DNA of 64,000 bases from Verrucomicrobiia bacterium (GCA_963664225.1 OY760937.1:2944001-3008000), one strand, 5' to 3'. Shown: positions 5,239 to 47,429, numbered from the stretch's first letter. The notes: generated from the sequence alone by a model not told the origin. Numbers and translations: made by a program.

Positions 5239-5254
5239 TGTTCCACGTGGAACA
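5239..5254. promoter_or_regulatory. parS: parS centromere site
   Basis: Perfect palindrome TGTTCCACGTGGAACA (extends to AAA...TTT, 5236-5257); matches the widespread parS consensus. Confidence 0.9.
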
Positions 5255-5564: not shown

Positions 5565-7481
5565 ATGTTCGTTTATCCGAAGAAGTATGACGTGATCGTG
5601 GTTGGCGCAGGTCACGCCGGTATTGAGGCCGCGCTGGCGGCGGCGCGCATGGGATGTCAGACGTTGATGCTCACCATCAATGCCGACACCATCGGCCAGA
5701 TGTCCTGCAATCCCGCCATTGGCGGACTGGCCAAGGGACATCTCGCGCGCGAAATCGATGCCCTGGGCGGCGACATGGGAAAAGCCACCGACATGACGGG
5801 TCTCCAGTTCCGCATGTTGAACACGCGCAAGGGACCTTCCGTCTGGGCCCCCCGAGCGCAGTGCGATAAGAAAGCCTACCAATTTCGTCTGAAGTGGATT
5901 CTCGAACGCGAGCCCCGTCTCGATCTCAAACAGGGCCAGGCCATCCGCCTTCTGCACAAAGATGGCCAGGTGACTGGATTGGAAACCTCCCTGGGAACCC
6001 AATATCTGGGAATCACCGTCATTTTGACCACCGGAACCTTCCTCCGGGGTTTGATGCATATTGGGTTTAACAAGATCCCCGGCGGACGTTCCGGCGAGGC
6101 TCCGTCACTGGGTATATCGGAATCCTTGAAGGAACTGGGTTTTGAACTGGGTCGCCTCAAGACAGGAACGCCACCCCGGTTGTTGCGTCGCAGCATCGAT
6201 TTCTCCCGGACGGAGGTCCAGGGTGGGGATGAGCCGGTGCCTTATTTCACCTATTGGAAAGACGATTTGTTCCACGTGGAACATTCCGGCATCCAACCCA
6301 ACGATATCGGCCAGTCCCAAGGCAAGTATCCGCCGGGATCCATTCTCGACCGCTTGAACGGCCAGTTGCCCTGTCATATTACCTACTCCACCGAGGAAAC
6401 GGCCAAAATCGTTCGGGCGAACCTGGACAAGTCGCCTCTGTATTCCGGCGTGATTGAAGGGATCGGTCCCCGCTATTGCCCCTCCATCGAGGATAAAATC
6501 GTCAAATTCCCCGACAAGGAACGCCACCAGTTGTTTCTGGAACCCGAGGGGATTCACACGGATGAGATCTATGTGAACGGCTTTTCCACAAGTCTGCCGC
6601 TGGAGGTTCAATATGCCATGGTGCATTCGATCATCGGTTGCGAGCATGCGGAAATCCTCCGCCCGGCCTACGCTGTCGAATACGATTTCGCGCCGCCGAC
6701 ACAACTCCATCCCTCGCTCGAAACCAAGCTCTGTCGCAATCTTTATCACGCCGGACAGATCAACGGAACCTCGGGTTACGAGGAAGCCGCCGCCCAGGGA
6801 TTGATGGCGGGCATCAATGCCGCCCGGCGTGTCCGATCCCTGGAACCGCTGGTGCTGCGTCGGGATCAGGCCTATATCGGGGTGTTGATCGATGACCTGG
6901 TGACCAAAGGCACGGCCGAGCCTTACCGGATGTTCACCTCCCGCGCAGAGTATCGCCTCCTGCTCCGCCAGGATAATGCGGATGCCCGGCTCTCACCCAT
7001 CGGTCATGAAATGGGGTTGCTACCGCTGCGAAACTACGAGCAATTCGTCGCCAAGCGGGCCTCCATCGATCTGGAATTGGAGCGATTGGCCAAGACCCGT
7101 TCGGGCGCCAATACCCTGGCGCAACTCCTGCGACGCCCCGAAATATGCTATGCGGATTTGCCCGACAAGAATTCTGCTTTAAGTCCCGAAGCCGTGCAGC
7201 AGGTTGAATTCATCCTCAAGTTCGCCGGTTATGTGGCCCGGCAACAGGAGGAGGTGGAGAAATTCAAGACCCTGGAGGATAAGCGGATTCCCGATTGGCT
7301 GGATTATAAAACCGTTCCCAGCCTGCGGACGGAGGCCAGGGTGAAACTCGATAAGATCCGCCCCACCACCCTTGGCCAGGCCTCGCGCATCTCGGGCGTT
7401 TCCCCCGCAGACATCAGCCTGCTCATGGTCTGGATGAAACGCGGCCCCCAGAAAGAGTTGGAAACGACAGAAAGCGTTTGA
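5565..7481 (+). CDS. mnmG: tRNA uridine-5-carboxymethylaminomethyl modification enzyme MnmG (GidA)
   Basis: [57 protein letters not shown]; true start ATG 5565. Confidence 0.97.
6268..6283. promoter_or_regulatory. parS: parS site inside the mnmG coding sequence
   Basis: Second perfect TGTTCCACGTGGAACA, read in frame as (L)FHVEH. Confidence 0.85.
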
Positions 7482-40472: not shown

Positions 40473-40736
40473 AGACATTGCTTTCGATCGCATTTCATTT
40501 ACGGGCTTGTTTCTGGCGATCAATTTAAGGGGTTCGCCGCGGTTTGCGACAAAAAAGGAGGCGGGGAAAAAAGTCCCGTCCTGAAACAGGTTGTCACAGA
40601 TGAGACAATAAACGGTGTCAGAAGGGTGGGAATAAGGTCCAGTGATTCGTTTAACCCGAAATCCGAAATACGAATGGTCAAGATGATGCAATGCTTTGAG
40701 GCAGCCATGATTTGCAATCGGCGAGGGTGTATTAAA

Positions 40737-42268
40737 CCCGAACTCCGAGATAGAAAAAGAGGTCGCAATGCGCAACCTTCTGAGGCAATAGGGTTTGATG
40801 CTAAACAAGCCCGCTTCAGACTCGCACAAAACGACCCCAGTCGAAATTAGCGCTCTTTTCGGCCAAGCCAAGCTCTATCTGGATGAGACTCCCAAGGCCA
40901 TAACCCCCTTCGGCGGTCTGGCTTCATTCATAACCTTTTTGGGTCAGATCGGCTATGCGCAGGCGGTGCAGCGGTGCTTGCCGTTTGCCGCGCCCACTTC
41001 ACCTAATGCCATTCCTCTAGCCCATACGCTGACCAGTTTTATCGTATCTGTGGTGGCGGGAGCACGCCGCTTTGCCCACTGTCAGTGGCTGCGTGCCGAT
41101 CATGTTCTGCACGCCATGCTGGGGATGGAACGTTTCCCGGGCGATGACACCATCCGCAACTTCTTCCTGCACTTTGGCCAGGGCCACATCGAAGCGTTCT
41201 GGCGACCGCTCTGGCGATGGCTGCTCAATCTGCTGGCCTGCCCCAAGGCAGGCTTCTCGTTGGATCTGGATTCGACCGTGTTCTGCCGGGAGGGTTCGCA
41301 GGAGGGGGCTGCCAAGGGGTACAATCCACGCCGCAAGGGGCGCAAGAGCCATCATCCGCTCCTGGCGGTGCTGGCCGAAGCGCCGTTTATCCTGCATGGA
41401 TGGTTGCGCAGCGGCAACACCGGAGCCGCGCGCGGGGTGGTGCCGTTTTTGCAGGAGGCATTGGCCCTGTTGCCCGAGGGAACGTGGATTCGGTGCGTGC
41501 GTGCCGACAGCGGGTTCTTCGATGAGGCGTTAGTGACGTTTTTGGAAATGCGCAAATTAACCTACATTGTGGTGGCGCGCATGACCTCCACGATCAAATA
41601 CCATTGCGTGGGAATCCAGAACTGGAAAGCCATCGATGAAAATCATGCCGTGGGGGAGTTTAGAGCCCAACTCTTTGGCTGGTCCACTGCCCGGCGATTC
41701 GTGGTGCTGCGGGAGCGGATCAGGGAAGACAAGGAGGCTCTGGGTCGCAAGCTCATTGATGTGCCCGGTTACACCTTTCGAGTGTGCGTCACCAACCGAA
41801 GTGAAGGCGCGCTGGAACTGTGGAGGGACTACAACGGAAGGGCCACCATCGAGCAGCGGATCGAGGAGCTGAAGAATGATCTGGCTGCCAACGGTTTTTG
41901 CCTGAAATCGTTTTTCGCCACCGAGTCGGCGTTTCTGGCGGTGCTCTTCACATTCAACCTGCTGAGTCTTTACCAGCATCAGACCACTCCAACCCAGCCA
42001 TACCGCCAGCCAGGAACATTGCGGACGACGGTTTTTCTGGCGGGAGCCCTCTTGGGAACGATGGGGCGTGATGTGGTGGTGAGGCTCTCGGCGGCCTGGG
42101 GTGGACTGGCTAAACACAAGCCGTTGATAGAAACCACGTTGAACTGGTTGAAAAGCGCGTCGCCGAAGTTGGTGCCACCGGAAGCCCGGCAAGCTTTCGG
42201 AGGGGGCGGAATATGACCGGAGGGGTTAGCGGTTCCCTAAAAAAACCGACCTAACTTCGGAGTTCGGG
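40737..42268 (+). mobile_element. IS1380-family insertion sequence
   Basis: 12-bp perfect TIR CCCGAACTCCGA; TSD TTAAA (40732-40736; the right copy is 42269 + 44245-44248, split by the intron). Confidence 0.88.
40798..42216 (+). CDS. IS1380-family DDE transposase
   Basis: TPFGGL, LDLDST, GYNP...SHHPLL, LRSGN, RADSGF, YNGRATIEQRIEELK. Confidence 0.92.
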   Translation: MLNKPASDSHKTTPVEISALFGQAKLYLDETPKAITPFGGLASFITFLGQIGYAQAVQRCLPFAAPTSPNAIPLAHTLTSFIVSVVAGARRFAHCQWLRADHVLHAMLGMERFPGDDTIRNFFLHFGQGHIEAFWRPLWRWLLNLLACPKAGFSLDLDSTVFCREGSQEGAAKGYNPRRKGRKSHHPLLAVLAEAPFILHGWLRSGNTGAARGVVPFLQEALALLPEGTWIRCVRADSGFFDEALVTFLEMRKLTYIVVARMTSTIKYHCVGIQNWKAIDENHAVGEFRAQLFGWSTARRFVVLRERIREDKEALGRKLIDVPGYTFRVCVTNRSEGALELWRDYNGRATIEQRIEELKNDLAANGFCLKSFFATESAFLAVLFTFNLLSLYQHQTTPTQPYRQPGTLRTTVFLAGALLGTMGRDVVVRLSAAWGGLAKHKPLIETTLNWLKSASPKLVPPEARQAFGGGGI

Positions 42269-42269
42269 T

Positions 42270-44244
42270 GTGCGCCAGTGAAATTGGTAGCCTCGTGGGT
42301 GAAAGTCCCGCCGGTCGAATTAGACGGTTCACGACCGAAATGCAGCGTCCGGGACGAGGCCGTGAGGCCGAACCACAAGCGGGACGCTGAAAGAACTGTC
42401 GGGTCGTAACGAAAGTAAACCTCATCAAATGAGCTCCGAAACCGAAATAACCGGTAAGCCGAGCCGCTACCCGAACGGCGAAGGCAGAAACGCGGCGTCA
42501 TCAAATCGTCAAATGGGCGCTGTTGATTCCGGCGGAGTCAGCGAGGGCGACACGACAGGAAGGGAAACCAAGGTAAGCTGGGAGATCTCTGGAGGCGGGG
42601 CGATAAAGCCTCAACCGCCGGTGCAAGGAGGAACACCCTCCGAGGCCGCACGGGCAGCCAGAGAAGTCGGAGTCTTCCATAGTAGCGAAGAAGCTGGGGC
42701 GACCAAAACCCCGGCGGAGCCAAGGGAAGGCACTTGGATCGAAGCGAATCAAAACAGCGAGGGACAGGGAGATGGCCTTGAGGGAGTGGAAACACTTTTT
42801 CAACGGATAACAACCCCGATAAAAGTTCAAAAGCTGCAGCGAGCGCTATATTGCAAAGCCAAGGCTGAGCCGAAGTATCGGTTTTACAGCCTCTACGGAG
42901 AACTGCTGCGGAAGGACGTGCTGGAAACGGCAATGGCCTCCGTGGCGCACAACAATGGCGCGGCTGGGATCGACGGGCAGACATGCGACGTCTATCTTGC
43001 CAGCGACGAAGCCTGGGACCAATGGCGGAACCAACTGCTGGAGGAGTTACGCACGAAGAAGTATCGGCCAAGCCCGGTGAAGCGTGTGTATATACCAAAA
43101 GGAGACGGGAAGCTGCGACCCCTGGGCATCCCGACAGTGAAAGACCGGGTGGTGCAGACAGCGGTGGTGATTGTATTGCTGCCGATTCTGGAAGCCGATA
43201 GTCATCCGAACAGTTACGCCTATCATCCCAAACGCAATGCCCACCAAGCAATGGAGGCGATCAAGAAGGCTACGCTGACAGGACGCGTCGAAGTTATAGA
43301 CGCGGACTTAAGCGGGTATTTTGACAGCATTCCCCACAGGCGTTTGTTGCGCATAGTGGCCAAGCGGGTCAGCGATGGAACAATTCTCAAGCTGATCGCA
43401 GGATGGCTGCGCGCGCCCGTGAATGAACCGCAAAGCGACACAGGGAAAGGCGGGACAAAGGGGGGGCAAGGTCAGAATCGACGGGGGACTCCGCAAGGCG
43501 GGGTTGTATCGCCGATTTTAGCCAATGCATACCTCAACCAGTTGGATTGGGAAGTCAACGAACGCTGCGAACTCAAACCCGTGATGGTGAGATACGCGGA
43601 TGATTTCGTGATACTCGGACAGCCGGGGCAGGGACGGGAACTGATGGAACGACTGGAACGATGGCTGAAGCAACGCGAGTTAGTGCTCAACGAGAAGAAG
43701 ACCCGCTTGGTGGACCTCCGCCAGGATGGCATCAAATTCTTGGGATTCGCGCTAACAATGCGACAGGGGAAGGGGAAATGGAAATATCCGCATGTGGAAC
43801 CCCATCCCAAGAGCCAGAAGAAGTTTCGAGACGGGATTCGGGAGAAACTCAACCGAAGCACGCTATGGCGTGATATCGGAGAGGTGATTCCCGAGCTCAA
43901 CAAGAAACTCAAAGGTTGGAAGGGTTACTTTCACTACGGGAACAGCACCAAGGTGATGGGCCAGATGAACGAATACGTCAGCAGCAAGTTACAACGATGG
44001 TTGTGGCGCAAACACGGATGTAGTCGGGCGCAATGGTCCACATACCCCAAGGAGGATCTCTATGAGCGTTATGGTTTATACCAAATGCCGGAATATGCGG
44101 CATGGAAACGATGACGTCGAAGCGATGCAACGTATGATCCCCGGAGAGCCGGATGCGGGAAAACCGCCTGTCCGGTTCGATGAGGGGCGAAATGCGACGG
44201 TCATTGGCCACGGCCATTCAATCCGTCCATTTCGCCTACTCTAC
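42270..44244 (+). mobile_element. Group II intron (IIB-like, EBS1 + EBS2)
   Basis: 5' GTGCG at 42270; domain V 44146-44178 with AGC triad; domain VI with bulged A ending CTCTAC at 44244; removal restores the IS TSD. Confidence 0.92.
42786..44114 (+). CDS. ltrA: Group II intron reverse transcriptase/maturase, no endonuclease domain
   Basis: RPLGIPTVKDR, DADLSGYFDSI, GTPQGGVVSP, YADD, X domain GWKGYF; start uncertain (GTG 42786 chosen, since the longer ORF runs through ribozyme domains). Confidence 0.92.
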   Translation: METLFQRITTPIKVQKLQRALYCKAKAEPKYRFYSLYGELLRKDVLETAMASVAHNNGAAGIDGQTCDVYLASDEAWDQWRNQLLEELRTKKYRPSPVKRVYIPKGDGKLRPLGIPTVKDRVVQTAVVIVLLPILEADSHPNSYAYHPKRNAHQAMEAIKKATLTGRVEVIDADLSGYFDSIPHRRLLRIVAKRVSDGTILKLIAGWLRAPVNEPQSDTGKGGTKGGQGQNRRGTPQGGVVSPILANAYLNQLDWEVNERCELKPVMVRYADDFVILGQPGQGRELMERLERWLKQRELVLNEKKTRLVDLRQDGIKFLGFALTMRQGKGKWKYPHVEPHPKSQKKFRDGIREKLNRSTLWRDIGEVIPELNKKLKGWKGYFHYGNSTKVMGQMNEYVSSKLQRWLWRKHGCSRAQWSTYPKEDLYERYGLYQMPEYAAWKR

Positions 44245-44491
44245 TAAATCAATACTCCACAGCCGGTTTCAAACCATGGATGGCCAAATGATTGCGTCAG
44301 ATGGGCCGTTCCTATTTCGGATTTCGGGTTTAAAGCGGCTGCGGTGAGGGAGCTGGAAGAGGGCGAAATGTCCTTTGATGCGATGTGGCGCAAGAAAGCG
44401 TTGAGGTGCTTGCGCACGGCCACCATGGGGAGCGCAGTCAATTTGCGAGGGCGCATTCGTTCTTGAATGCGTCCTTTTGCATAATGCCGTG

Positions 44492-46058: not shown

Positions 46059-47420
46059 TCAGCGGGCCAGTTGCTTTTCCAGGTAATTGACTGCCTGGCG
46101 CACGCTTTCATCCACTTCCATGCGATCTTTGACCAGCTTGCAGGCGTGCAGCACCGTCCCGTGATCGCGGCCACCGAACGCCTCGCCGATCGCACTCAGC
46201 GAATTTTCGGTCATTTGCCGGGAGAGAAACATGGCGATTTGACGGGGAAACGCGATGTTTTCGGGCCTGCGTTTGCTGACCATGTCGGTCATGCGAATAT
46301 CGAAATGCTCGGCCACCCGTTTTTGGATGATGGTGATGTTGATGGTAAAGCGCCCTTCCTCGTGAAGTAATTCCCGCAGAAGTTCTTCCGCCAGTTCGAG
46401 CGTCGGTTTCTTATTCGTCAACGTGATGTACGAGGTCAGGCGGATCAGGGCGCCCTCGAGGCGACGGATATTCGTGCGAATCCGGTCCGCGATAAAATGA
46501 ATGACTTCGCTCGGCAAATGAACGCCGATCATGGCCTCTTTTTTCAGGAGAATGGCCACGCGGGTCTCGACATCCGGCGGCTGGAGATCGGCCACCAGAC
46601 CCCATTCGAGGCGGGACATGAGCCGCTGCTCCAGGTTCTGCATCTCGGCCGGAGGACGGTCGCAGGTGAGCACGATTTGCTTGTGGCTCTCGTGCAAGGC
46701 GTTGAACGTATGGAAAAACTCCTCCTGAATGCGTTCCTTGCCCGCGAGGAATTGAATGTCATCGATCAACAGCAGGTCGGTCTGGCGGTATTTCTTGCGG
46801 AACTTGACCAACTGGCTGTTTTGAATGGCGTCGATGTATTCGTTGGTGAATTTCTCGGAGGACAAATAGGCGACGCGCGCGCCCTTTTTCTGGCTTAGCA
46901 GTTGCTGGCCAATGGCATGGAGCAGATGCGTTTTTCCCAGACCCACACCGGCATACAAGAAAAGCGGGTTATAGGATTTGCCGGGAGATTGTGCCACGGC
47001 CATGGCCGCCGCATGGGAGAAACTGTTGGTGCTGCCCACGACAAACGTGTCAAAAGTGTATTTGGGATTGAATCCCAGGTCTGCCGGGGAGCTGTAATCC
47101 AGCGTTGCACCGCCGCTTTTGGCCTTTTTGGGCTGAACCTCGGGTGCGGGCAATGAAGCCGCTGGAGCGGTCGCCGCAATGTGGAAATCAACCTTGATCT
47201 GTTGGCCGGATTCGTGCGAAAGGACGTTCTGGAGCAAATCCAGATAGTTGTCCTTGAGCCAGACCTCGCAAAAATCGTTGGCCACTTCCAGAGTGACGAC
47301 GTCGGCGACCTGGTTGACGGCTCGCAGTGGGGCAAACCACAGATTATAAAGATCAGTGTTTAGCATGGTGCGCAGGCGCTCTTGCGCCTTCCCCCAAATG
47401 CCTTCAACTGATGTTTGCAT
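46059..47420 (-). CDS. dnaA: Chromosomal replication initiator DnaA
   Basis: NPKYTFDTFV, YNPLFLY.GVGLGKTHL, LLIDDIQF, QEEFFHTFN, FGGRDHGTV. Confidence 0.97.
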   Translation of the reverse strand: MQTSVEGIWGKAQERLRTMLNTDLYNLWFAPLRAVNQVADVVTLEVANDFCEVWLKDNYLDLLQNVLSHESGQQIKVDFHIAATAPAASLPAPEVQPKKAKSGGATLDYSSPADLGFNPKYTFDTFVVGSTNSFSHAAAMAVAQSPGKSYNPLFLYAGVGLGKTHLLHAIGQQLLSQKKGARVAYLSSEKFTNEYIDAIQNSQLVKFRKKYRQTDLLLIDDIQFLAGKERIQEEFFHTFNALHESHKQIVLTCDRPPAEMQNLEQRLMSRLEWGLVADLQPPDVETRVAILLKKEAMIGVHLPSEVIHFIADRIRTNIRRLEGALIRLTSYITLTNKKPTLELAEELLRELLHEEGRFTINITIIQKRVAEHFDIRMTDMVSKRRPENIAFPRQIAMFLSRQMTENSLSAIGEAFGGRDHGTVLHACKLVKDRMEVDESVRQAVNYLEKQLAR

Positions 47421-47429
47421 ATTCAATTC

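Follow-up and report, generated by a model that had tools for sequence, protein, structure and literature searches.

A group II intron beside an IS1380-family element, nested within a miniature inverted-repeat element of a Verrucomicrobiia genome

Architecture of the nested locus

A stretch of 64,000 nt from a Verrucomicrobiia bacterium (GCA_963664225.1 OY760937.1:2944001-3008000; hereafter the window, whose positions are used unless stated otherwise) carries on its + strand a four-layer nest of mobile DNA, in which the broken left end of an IS3-family insertion sequence (IS) contains a 162-bp miniature transposable element with inverted repeats (MITE), which contains in turn an IS1380-family element with a group II intron adjoining its right end. 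From 5′ to 3′, the layers follow each other as TTTAA, MITE left arm, IS, T, intron, TAAA, MITE right arm and TTTAA. The left part of the IS3 end (40573..40654) closes with the TTTAA that forms the left target duplication of the MITE (40650..40654), followed by the 82-bp MITE left arm with its terminal inverted repeat (TIR; 40655..40736), at whose end lies the central TTAAA used as target by the IS (40732-40736). The IS1380-family element (40737..42268) is 1532 bp long, shows 13-bp perfect inverted ends when one flank base is included, and encodes a DDE transposase of 473 amino acids (40795..42216). The intron, of 1975 nt and IIB type, occupies positions 42270..44244, and is followed by the remainder of the IS target duplication (TAAA) with the MITE right arm and its TIR (44245..44328), the right TTTAA duplication of the MITE (44329..44333) and the right part of the IS3 end (44334..44394), which, as judged from its paralogues, keeps the start of orfA and has lost the rest.

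Each of these layers can be undone in silico. Excision of the intron joins T and TAAA into TTAAA, the same motif as at 40732-40736, and the two MITE arms (40655-40736 and 44249-44328), once reassembled, add up to 82+80 = 162 bp. The genome holds 18 intact MITEs of this length, three of them identical to the reconstruction, as well as five identical copies of the IS and 19 identical copies of the intron, matches that are far beyond chance. These MITEs are short, bounded by TIRs and multicopy, with an exact 5-bp target duplication at 16 of the 18 intact ones. Three further MITEs are interrupted at their centre, namely the present one, one by the same IS1380 element (genome positions 828002-831675) and one by an IS1634 (264554-266580). 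The latter shows no matching outer duplication, and its IS1634 is present in 6 full copies with 7-bp duplications. Over the 25 MITE, composite and IS insertions examined, 23 carry an exact 5-bp duplication and 21 used TTTAA as target.

The flanks of the nest correspond to an IS3-family left end truncated after ~143 nt, with 86% identity (over 144 nt, both parts together) to intact copies whose orfB passes the NF033516 model. In seven paralogous IS3 stretches of the genome (83-86% identical), TTTAA is found a single time at the position of the MITE insertion, which means that an empty-site allele exists; the site is also single at loci in three other genomes, plus a partial one in a fourth. An initial sequence-only reading of the window, which had staked the nest on the existence of free 162-mers and of an empty site, described three tiers built in the order MITE, IS and intron. 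Both kinds of sequence are present, and the proposed order is supported, although the fourth, outer layer formed by the IS3 left end had been missed.

The window is part of one 5.78-Mb contig, whose ends overlap. The three inner parts of the unit are all multicopy, and neither a read nor a contig across the whole unit was found in four sequencing runs, so that its assembly is supported by the logic of the junctions and not by long reads. A mis-assembly of three repeat families would account for both facts, but is extremely improbable, because target duplications are rebuilt at every layer and are exact in the 23 of 25 insertions mentioned above, the IS3 host sequence continues in register on both sides of the unit, and a second composite shows identical IS-in-MITE junctions. 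The pieces from one run that cross the IS/intron junction (by 26 letters) and the intron/MITE junction (by 30) fall below the 31-letter bar and were not counted. The joined empty-MITE form occurs in all four runs, where it may derive from other MITE copies.

The assignment of the IS to the IS1380 family follows from its transposase (NF033539, 227 bits for a cut-off of 180; PF13701), together with the terminal inverted repeats and a TTTAA duplicated at all five IS copies. The outer MITE TIR matches the IS left end at 14/16 bases, and both elements share the TTTAA target, which makes it likely, from their sequences, that MITE and IS1380 use the same transposase and that the MITE is mobilised in trans. 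Among 400 other genomes of the order, 19 yielded related IS left ends; most of those listed share the end motif, and several, some of them at 19/20 bases, are closer to the MITE end than is the resident IS. Moreover, IS1380 members are described, in the accessible part of the source, as using alternative downstream ends and thereby capturing flanking DNA (PMC9330008). The earlier suggestion that the enclosed transposase could act on the outer MITE ends is thus plausible, given the likeness of the TIRs, the TTTAA target in 21 of 25 insertions and these alternative ends.

The intron and its targets

The intron starts with GTGCG and ends with AC, as in the GUGYG...AY consensus, and shows Rfam matches to domains 1-4 and 5-6 (RF02005 and RF00029, both above the gathering score) and a domain 5/6 fold with z = -5.3. 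Its open frame for a reverse transcriptase (RT)/maturase (42429..44114) passes the group II model TIGR04416 with 357 bits (on 42777-44111) and contains the RT and X domains only (PF00078 and PF08388), without an endonuclease domain; the true start is likely a GTG at 42786, to judge from an upstream GAGGGA. These features, together with the pairing of its exon-binding sites (EBS) to the exons, define a IIB group II intron, and its 19 identical copies suggest that it would be able to splice and retrohome.

Every one of the 19 introns is found 1 nt past an end of the form CGGA.TTCGGG (13 MITE ends, 4 IS ends and 2 lone ends), a 17-base type of site expected 0.005 times by chance under a Markov model. 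In the present copy, the 5′ target, formed by intron-binding sites (IBS) 2 and 1, comprises the right TIR of the IS and the first T of the duplicated target (42253..42269), matched at 6/6 positions by EBS1 and at 6/8 by EBS2. The EBS elements were located through an alignment of domain 1 from 13 related introns, whose columns were tested against exon positions. EBS1 (ACCCGA, 42469..42474) lies in a hairpin loop and has exon positions -1 to -6 as its predicted partners, with -1 paired in 11/11 introns through four pair types. EBS2 (CCGAAATA, 42442..42449) is predicted to pair with -10 to -17, with covariation at -11 and -12 over 11 introns, where position -12 forms nine Watson-Crick and two G-U pairs. 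For EBS3 (A, 42540..42540), the predicted partner is the base that opens the 3′ exon, as found in 9/9 introns with two pair types, and a T follows all 19 copies. A first EBS2 candidate, UCCGAA near 42435, was rejected as part of a conserved stem, the covariation indicating 42442-42449.

The occupancy of potential sites follows these pairings. EBS2 matches the MITE ends at 8/8 positions and the IS ends at 7/8 and 6/8. Where EBS1 and EBS3 match a site in full, an intron is present at 19 of the 54 sites that also fit the EBS2 core at 4 of 4 positions, and at none of the 759 with a weaker core, a set that includes 11 copies of another repeat. This repeat (782334 and 10 other places) has full IBS1 and IBS3 and a poor IBS2, and is never occupied. 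The first two T of the target duplication supply the last base of IBS1 and that of IBS3; the intron site thus arises only after transposition, and does so at both ends. As TTTAA starts with TT and so does its reverse complement, two landing sites, one per strand, would come with each MITE or IS insertion. In the genome census, no element had both ends occupied by introns, and the two lone sites (2063462 and 3974269) had no partner end within 3 kb; the 10 bases after the intron at one of them match the MITE centre. The present intron is the only copy downstream of the transposase gene and co-oriented with it, and a scan for promoters and terminators gave counts at chance level. A second group II intron family of four copies (1677049, 2330941, 5161928 and 5605581), with 42% RT identity and unrelated sites, also resides in the genome, and its shared 5′ boundary reads ...GGAAAGCGCC and not GTGCG.

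Close relatives of the intron, obtained from genome and metagenome scans and from 20 of the 400 genomes of the order, were examined by asking whether the 40 nt that stop 1 nt short of the intron have a partner, inverted and in register, no more than 420 nt away. Fourteen of 24 non-redundant close loci with enough flank lie at the tip of short inverted-repeat elements, compared with none of five more distant introns and 74 of 2787 shifted control positions (2.7%); as these loci are related and not independent, no p-value is attached to the counts. Excluded from the set were copies in tandem or lacking flanks, a doubtful match, three loci whose 5′ end is missing, two duplicates, and three loci with short flanks, two of them at <90 nt and one at 113 nt. 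A TTCGGG-type end like the present one occurs at five loci of three genomes, the others have different ends with EBS1 changed to match wherever the loop is readable, and several loci that did not pass end in a similar motif with no partner found. Close relatives were found neither in a protein search of 40 relatives nor in 400 genomes drawn from the phylum. Distant relatives (~40% identical) show other targets by eye, in an uncounted sample, and many introns at this level of identity insert in a conserved coding motif, PPAYVKPY, which we take to be that of IS110-family transposases. Some related introns, one of them at 114-2082 of its locus, are joined end-to-start with another copy, in a tandem or circular form; the EBS3 of this one is a C, matching its own first G.

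The introns show a strand bias. In the clearly G-skewed arc of the chromosome, introns occupy 10 of 15 MITE-type ends on the + strand and none of 11 on the - strand (Fisher p = 7e-4), while in the other arc they occupy none of 6 on + and 5 of 8 on -; this test leaves out the four introns at IS ends, the present copy included. Round the whole circle, intron orientation changes only twice (p = 7e-4). Such a pattern matches the homing into the lagging-strand template that is described for endonuclease-less introns in the accessible text of PMC4615759.

The replication origin is probably near the window, because two parS-like palindromes (5239-5254 and 6268-6283), the adjacent mnmG-like gene at 2.949 Mb and the only dnaA (46059-47426, 2.990 Mb) all lie within it, the parS motif and the mnmG name being our assumption. 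Along ~3.3 Mb GC skew has strongly positive values, and along ~2.3 Mb (from ~1.4 to 3.7 Mb) it is flat and places no origin; this pattern suggests rearrangements, and the present replichores may be better marked by intron orientation than by skew. A cluster of DnaA boxes at 2.8925 Mb was rejected as origin, since most boxes are inside a gene.

Construction of the nest

The nest was probably built by three separate insertions, the intron coming last through its own RNA-guided homing to a transposon end, and not as cargo. In a first step, the MITE entered the TTTAA of the IS3 relic, as the empty paralogues show. In a second one, the IS1380 element, which has the same TTTAA target, inserted into the single such site at the MITE centre, as seen from its duplication. 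Finally, the intron RNA would pair through EBS1 and EBS2 with the terminal repeat, and through EBS1 and EBS3 with the first two T of the duplicated target, and would enter by reverse splicing 1 nt past the element, whose TIR would stay intact; position and complementarity are observed in this last step, from which its mechanism is proposed. As the intron has no endonuclease, it would likely use the lagging-strand template at the replication fork. In any case, the 19 of 19 copies at such ends and the complementarity of the intron RNA to them mean that its position needs no cargo model.

The second MITE::IS1380 composite (828002-831675) offers the main comparison. It has TTGAG as target duplication, an intron at the left end of the IS and four differences in the left arm, and each of the two composites is identical in its MITE to three intact copies, which differ between them. 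Since haplotype, target duplication and intron side all differ, the two IS insertions at the central target are likely independent, the second composite having arisen separately, and the unrelated IS1634 in the same MITE centre of a third copy supports this independence. This second composite is itself part of a deep nest (827872-834495), where an IS3 copy is interrupted by MITE::IS1380::intron and by an IS256-family element.

Several observations weigh against this scenario of separate insertions and homing. Two of the five IS copies sit in a MITE centre, with p ~9e-5 if all 7048 TTTAA/TTAAA sites are taken as equal, no MITE-in-MITE was found among 23 MITE centres, and the orientation of the IS is identical in both composites. 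Moreover, each composite lies in an IS3 left end, at points 47 nt apart, while none of the 23 other insertions examined is in such an end (1 in 210, in a post-hoc count); the two (window 40573-44394 and genome 827872-831680) are oppositely oriented in these ends, a coincidence that stays unexplained. As for the strand, the present copy and one other lie on + in an arc where six are on -, and GC skew is flat at the present locus. Lagging-strand homing would account for the present copy only with an origin to the left of 2.986 Mb, and not with one just upstream of dnaA (2.991 Mb); the parS-like sites and the mnmG-like gene favour the former position, with dnaA leaving the question undecided. Finally, both splicing and homing are proposed from sequence.

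The IS3 coincidence leaves a single origin of both composites a low but appreciable probability. In its most explicit form, which we regard as unlikely, MITE::IS1380 would have arisen once and moved on the MITE ends, one left arm would later have been converted by another MITE haplotype, and the introns would have been added separately, with none carried along. The shared insertion point and orientation, the low chance under the uniform model, the lack of MITE-in-MITE copies and the common location in IS3 ends are in line with such a history, as are the TIRs and target common to MITE and IS, the capture of flanking DNA through alternative ends described for IS1380 members in the available part of PMC9330008, and arm positions 17 and 21, whose four combinations all occur and imply conversion or recurrent change among MITEs. 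However, it needs a conversion tract from 17 to 71, ending 11 nt from a 1.5-kb heterology and matching a resident haplotype exactly, it does not explain the IS3 coincidence alone, and the unrelated IS1634 also entered a MITE centre. Even under a single origin, cargo transport would have no direct support, because the two introns were added separately. An unlikely elaboration would be that the MITE regained autonomy through its own cognate IS, so that the composite transposed once, with a preference for IS3 left ends, and now encloses the intron as potential cargo.

Transposition of the whole 3.7-kb unit with the intron as cargo, as the sequence-only reading had put forward as possible, is very unlikely. 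The intron does lie inside the outer ends, and with an origin just upstream of dnaA the present copy may be alone in departing from the strand bias; yet every unit junction is unique (each of five is single in the genome), the intron of the other composite lies at the opposite IS end, and parS beside the mnmG-like gene at 2.949 Mb would make the present orientation regular. No second copy of the 3.7-kb unit was found in the genome, nor was the same unit present at a second locus with a new target duplication, as a transposable module of the IS1380 type would show. A query of MITE left arm plus IS left end against the 400 other genomes of the order, with at most two candidates scored per genome, matched the IS part alone, in 19 genomes. 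The search for copies proposed at the outset has thus yielded free MITEs and a second MITE plus IS and no whole unit elsewhere, and the idea of the intron as cargo is left unsupported.

Significance and comparison with known systems

The nest as such is an ordinary accumulation of mobile DNA in neutral sequence, and would gain weight if the composite did move. What the locus records is a three-way dependency, in which a transposase would spread a MITE and each insertion would create two landing sites for an intron that spares the element end. Judging from the related introns, the whole lineage has this habit, EBS1 being retuned to other element ends, and these introns provide natural retargeting pairs for the study of EBS rules. 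In the open-access literature searched, with most subscription papers lying outside it, no report of a group II intron at IS1380 or MITE ends was found, and the strategy extends one otherwise found described, in the accessible parts of the sources, for a single intron, RmInt2.

In Sinorhizobium meliloti GR4, as far as the available portions of the corresponding papers go, the two inverted repeats of ISRm17 both serve RmInt2 as homing sites (PMC4615759, PMC5894124). Like it, the present intron is an endonuclease-less IIB intron with identical recent copies, takes both IS inverted repeats as targets through EBS1/2/3 and would share its lagging-strand-template bias (PMC4615759). The use of left and right ends and the strand bias agree with such a strategy, the position of the origin being uncertain. 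On the other hand, the C-terminus of the present ORF lacks the motif LX3AX3PXLF[V/A]HW given for class D in the accessible text of PMC4615759, so that by this motif the intron is not of class D, and it inserts in the target duplication, 1 nt beyond the TIR, while the same text places RmInt2 within the repeats. Also unlike RmInt2, most present hosts are non-autonomous MITEs (13/19), with a closer EBS2 match to the MITE end than to the resident IS ends.

With the modules of ISEcp1 and ISPme1, as they appear in the available part of PMC9330008, the locus shares the transposase family and a TIR-like sequence 2 kb past the right end of the IS, a potential alternative end; it differs from them in that no mobilised module was found in the genome, and in that this end is a MITE TIR with the intron as potential passenger.

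Class C (IIC) introns, according to the accessible portions of PMC8919778 and PMC7923331, insert after terminators or attC hairpins, the hairpin being read in place of IBS2. The insertion beside palindromic elements in neutral DNA recalls these introns, but here a covarying EBS2 is required by the occupancy pattern, and the ends of a 1.5-kb IS and lone ends without a hairpin are used as well. Finally, the IStrons and the 'MITEtron' of Thiomargarita are, in the part of PMC4853749 available, group I introns with the element inside the intron. They resemble the present case in the association of an intron with a transposon-derived element, whereas here a group II intron lies beside the element and each part spreads alone.

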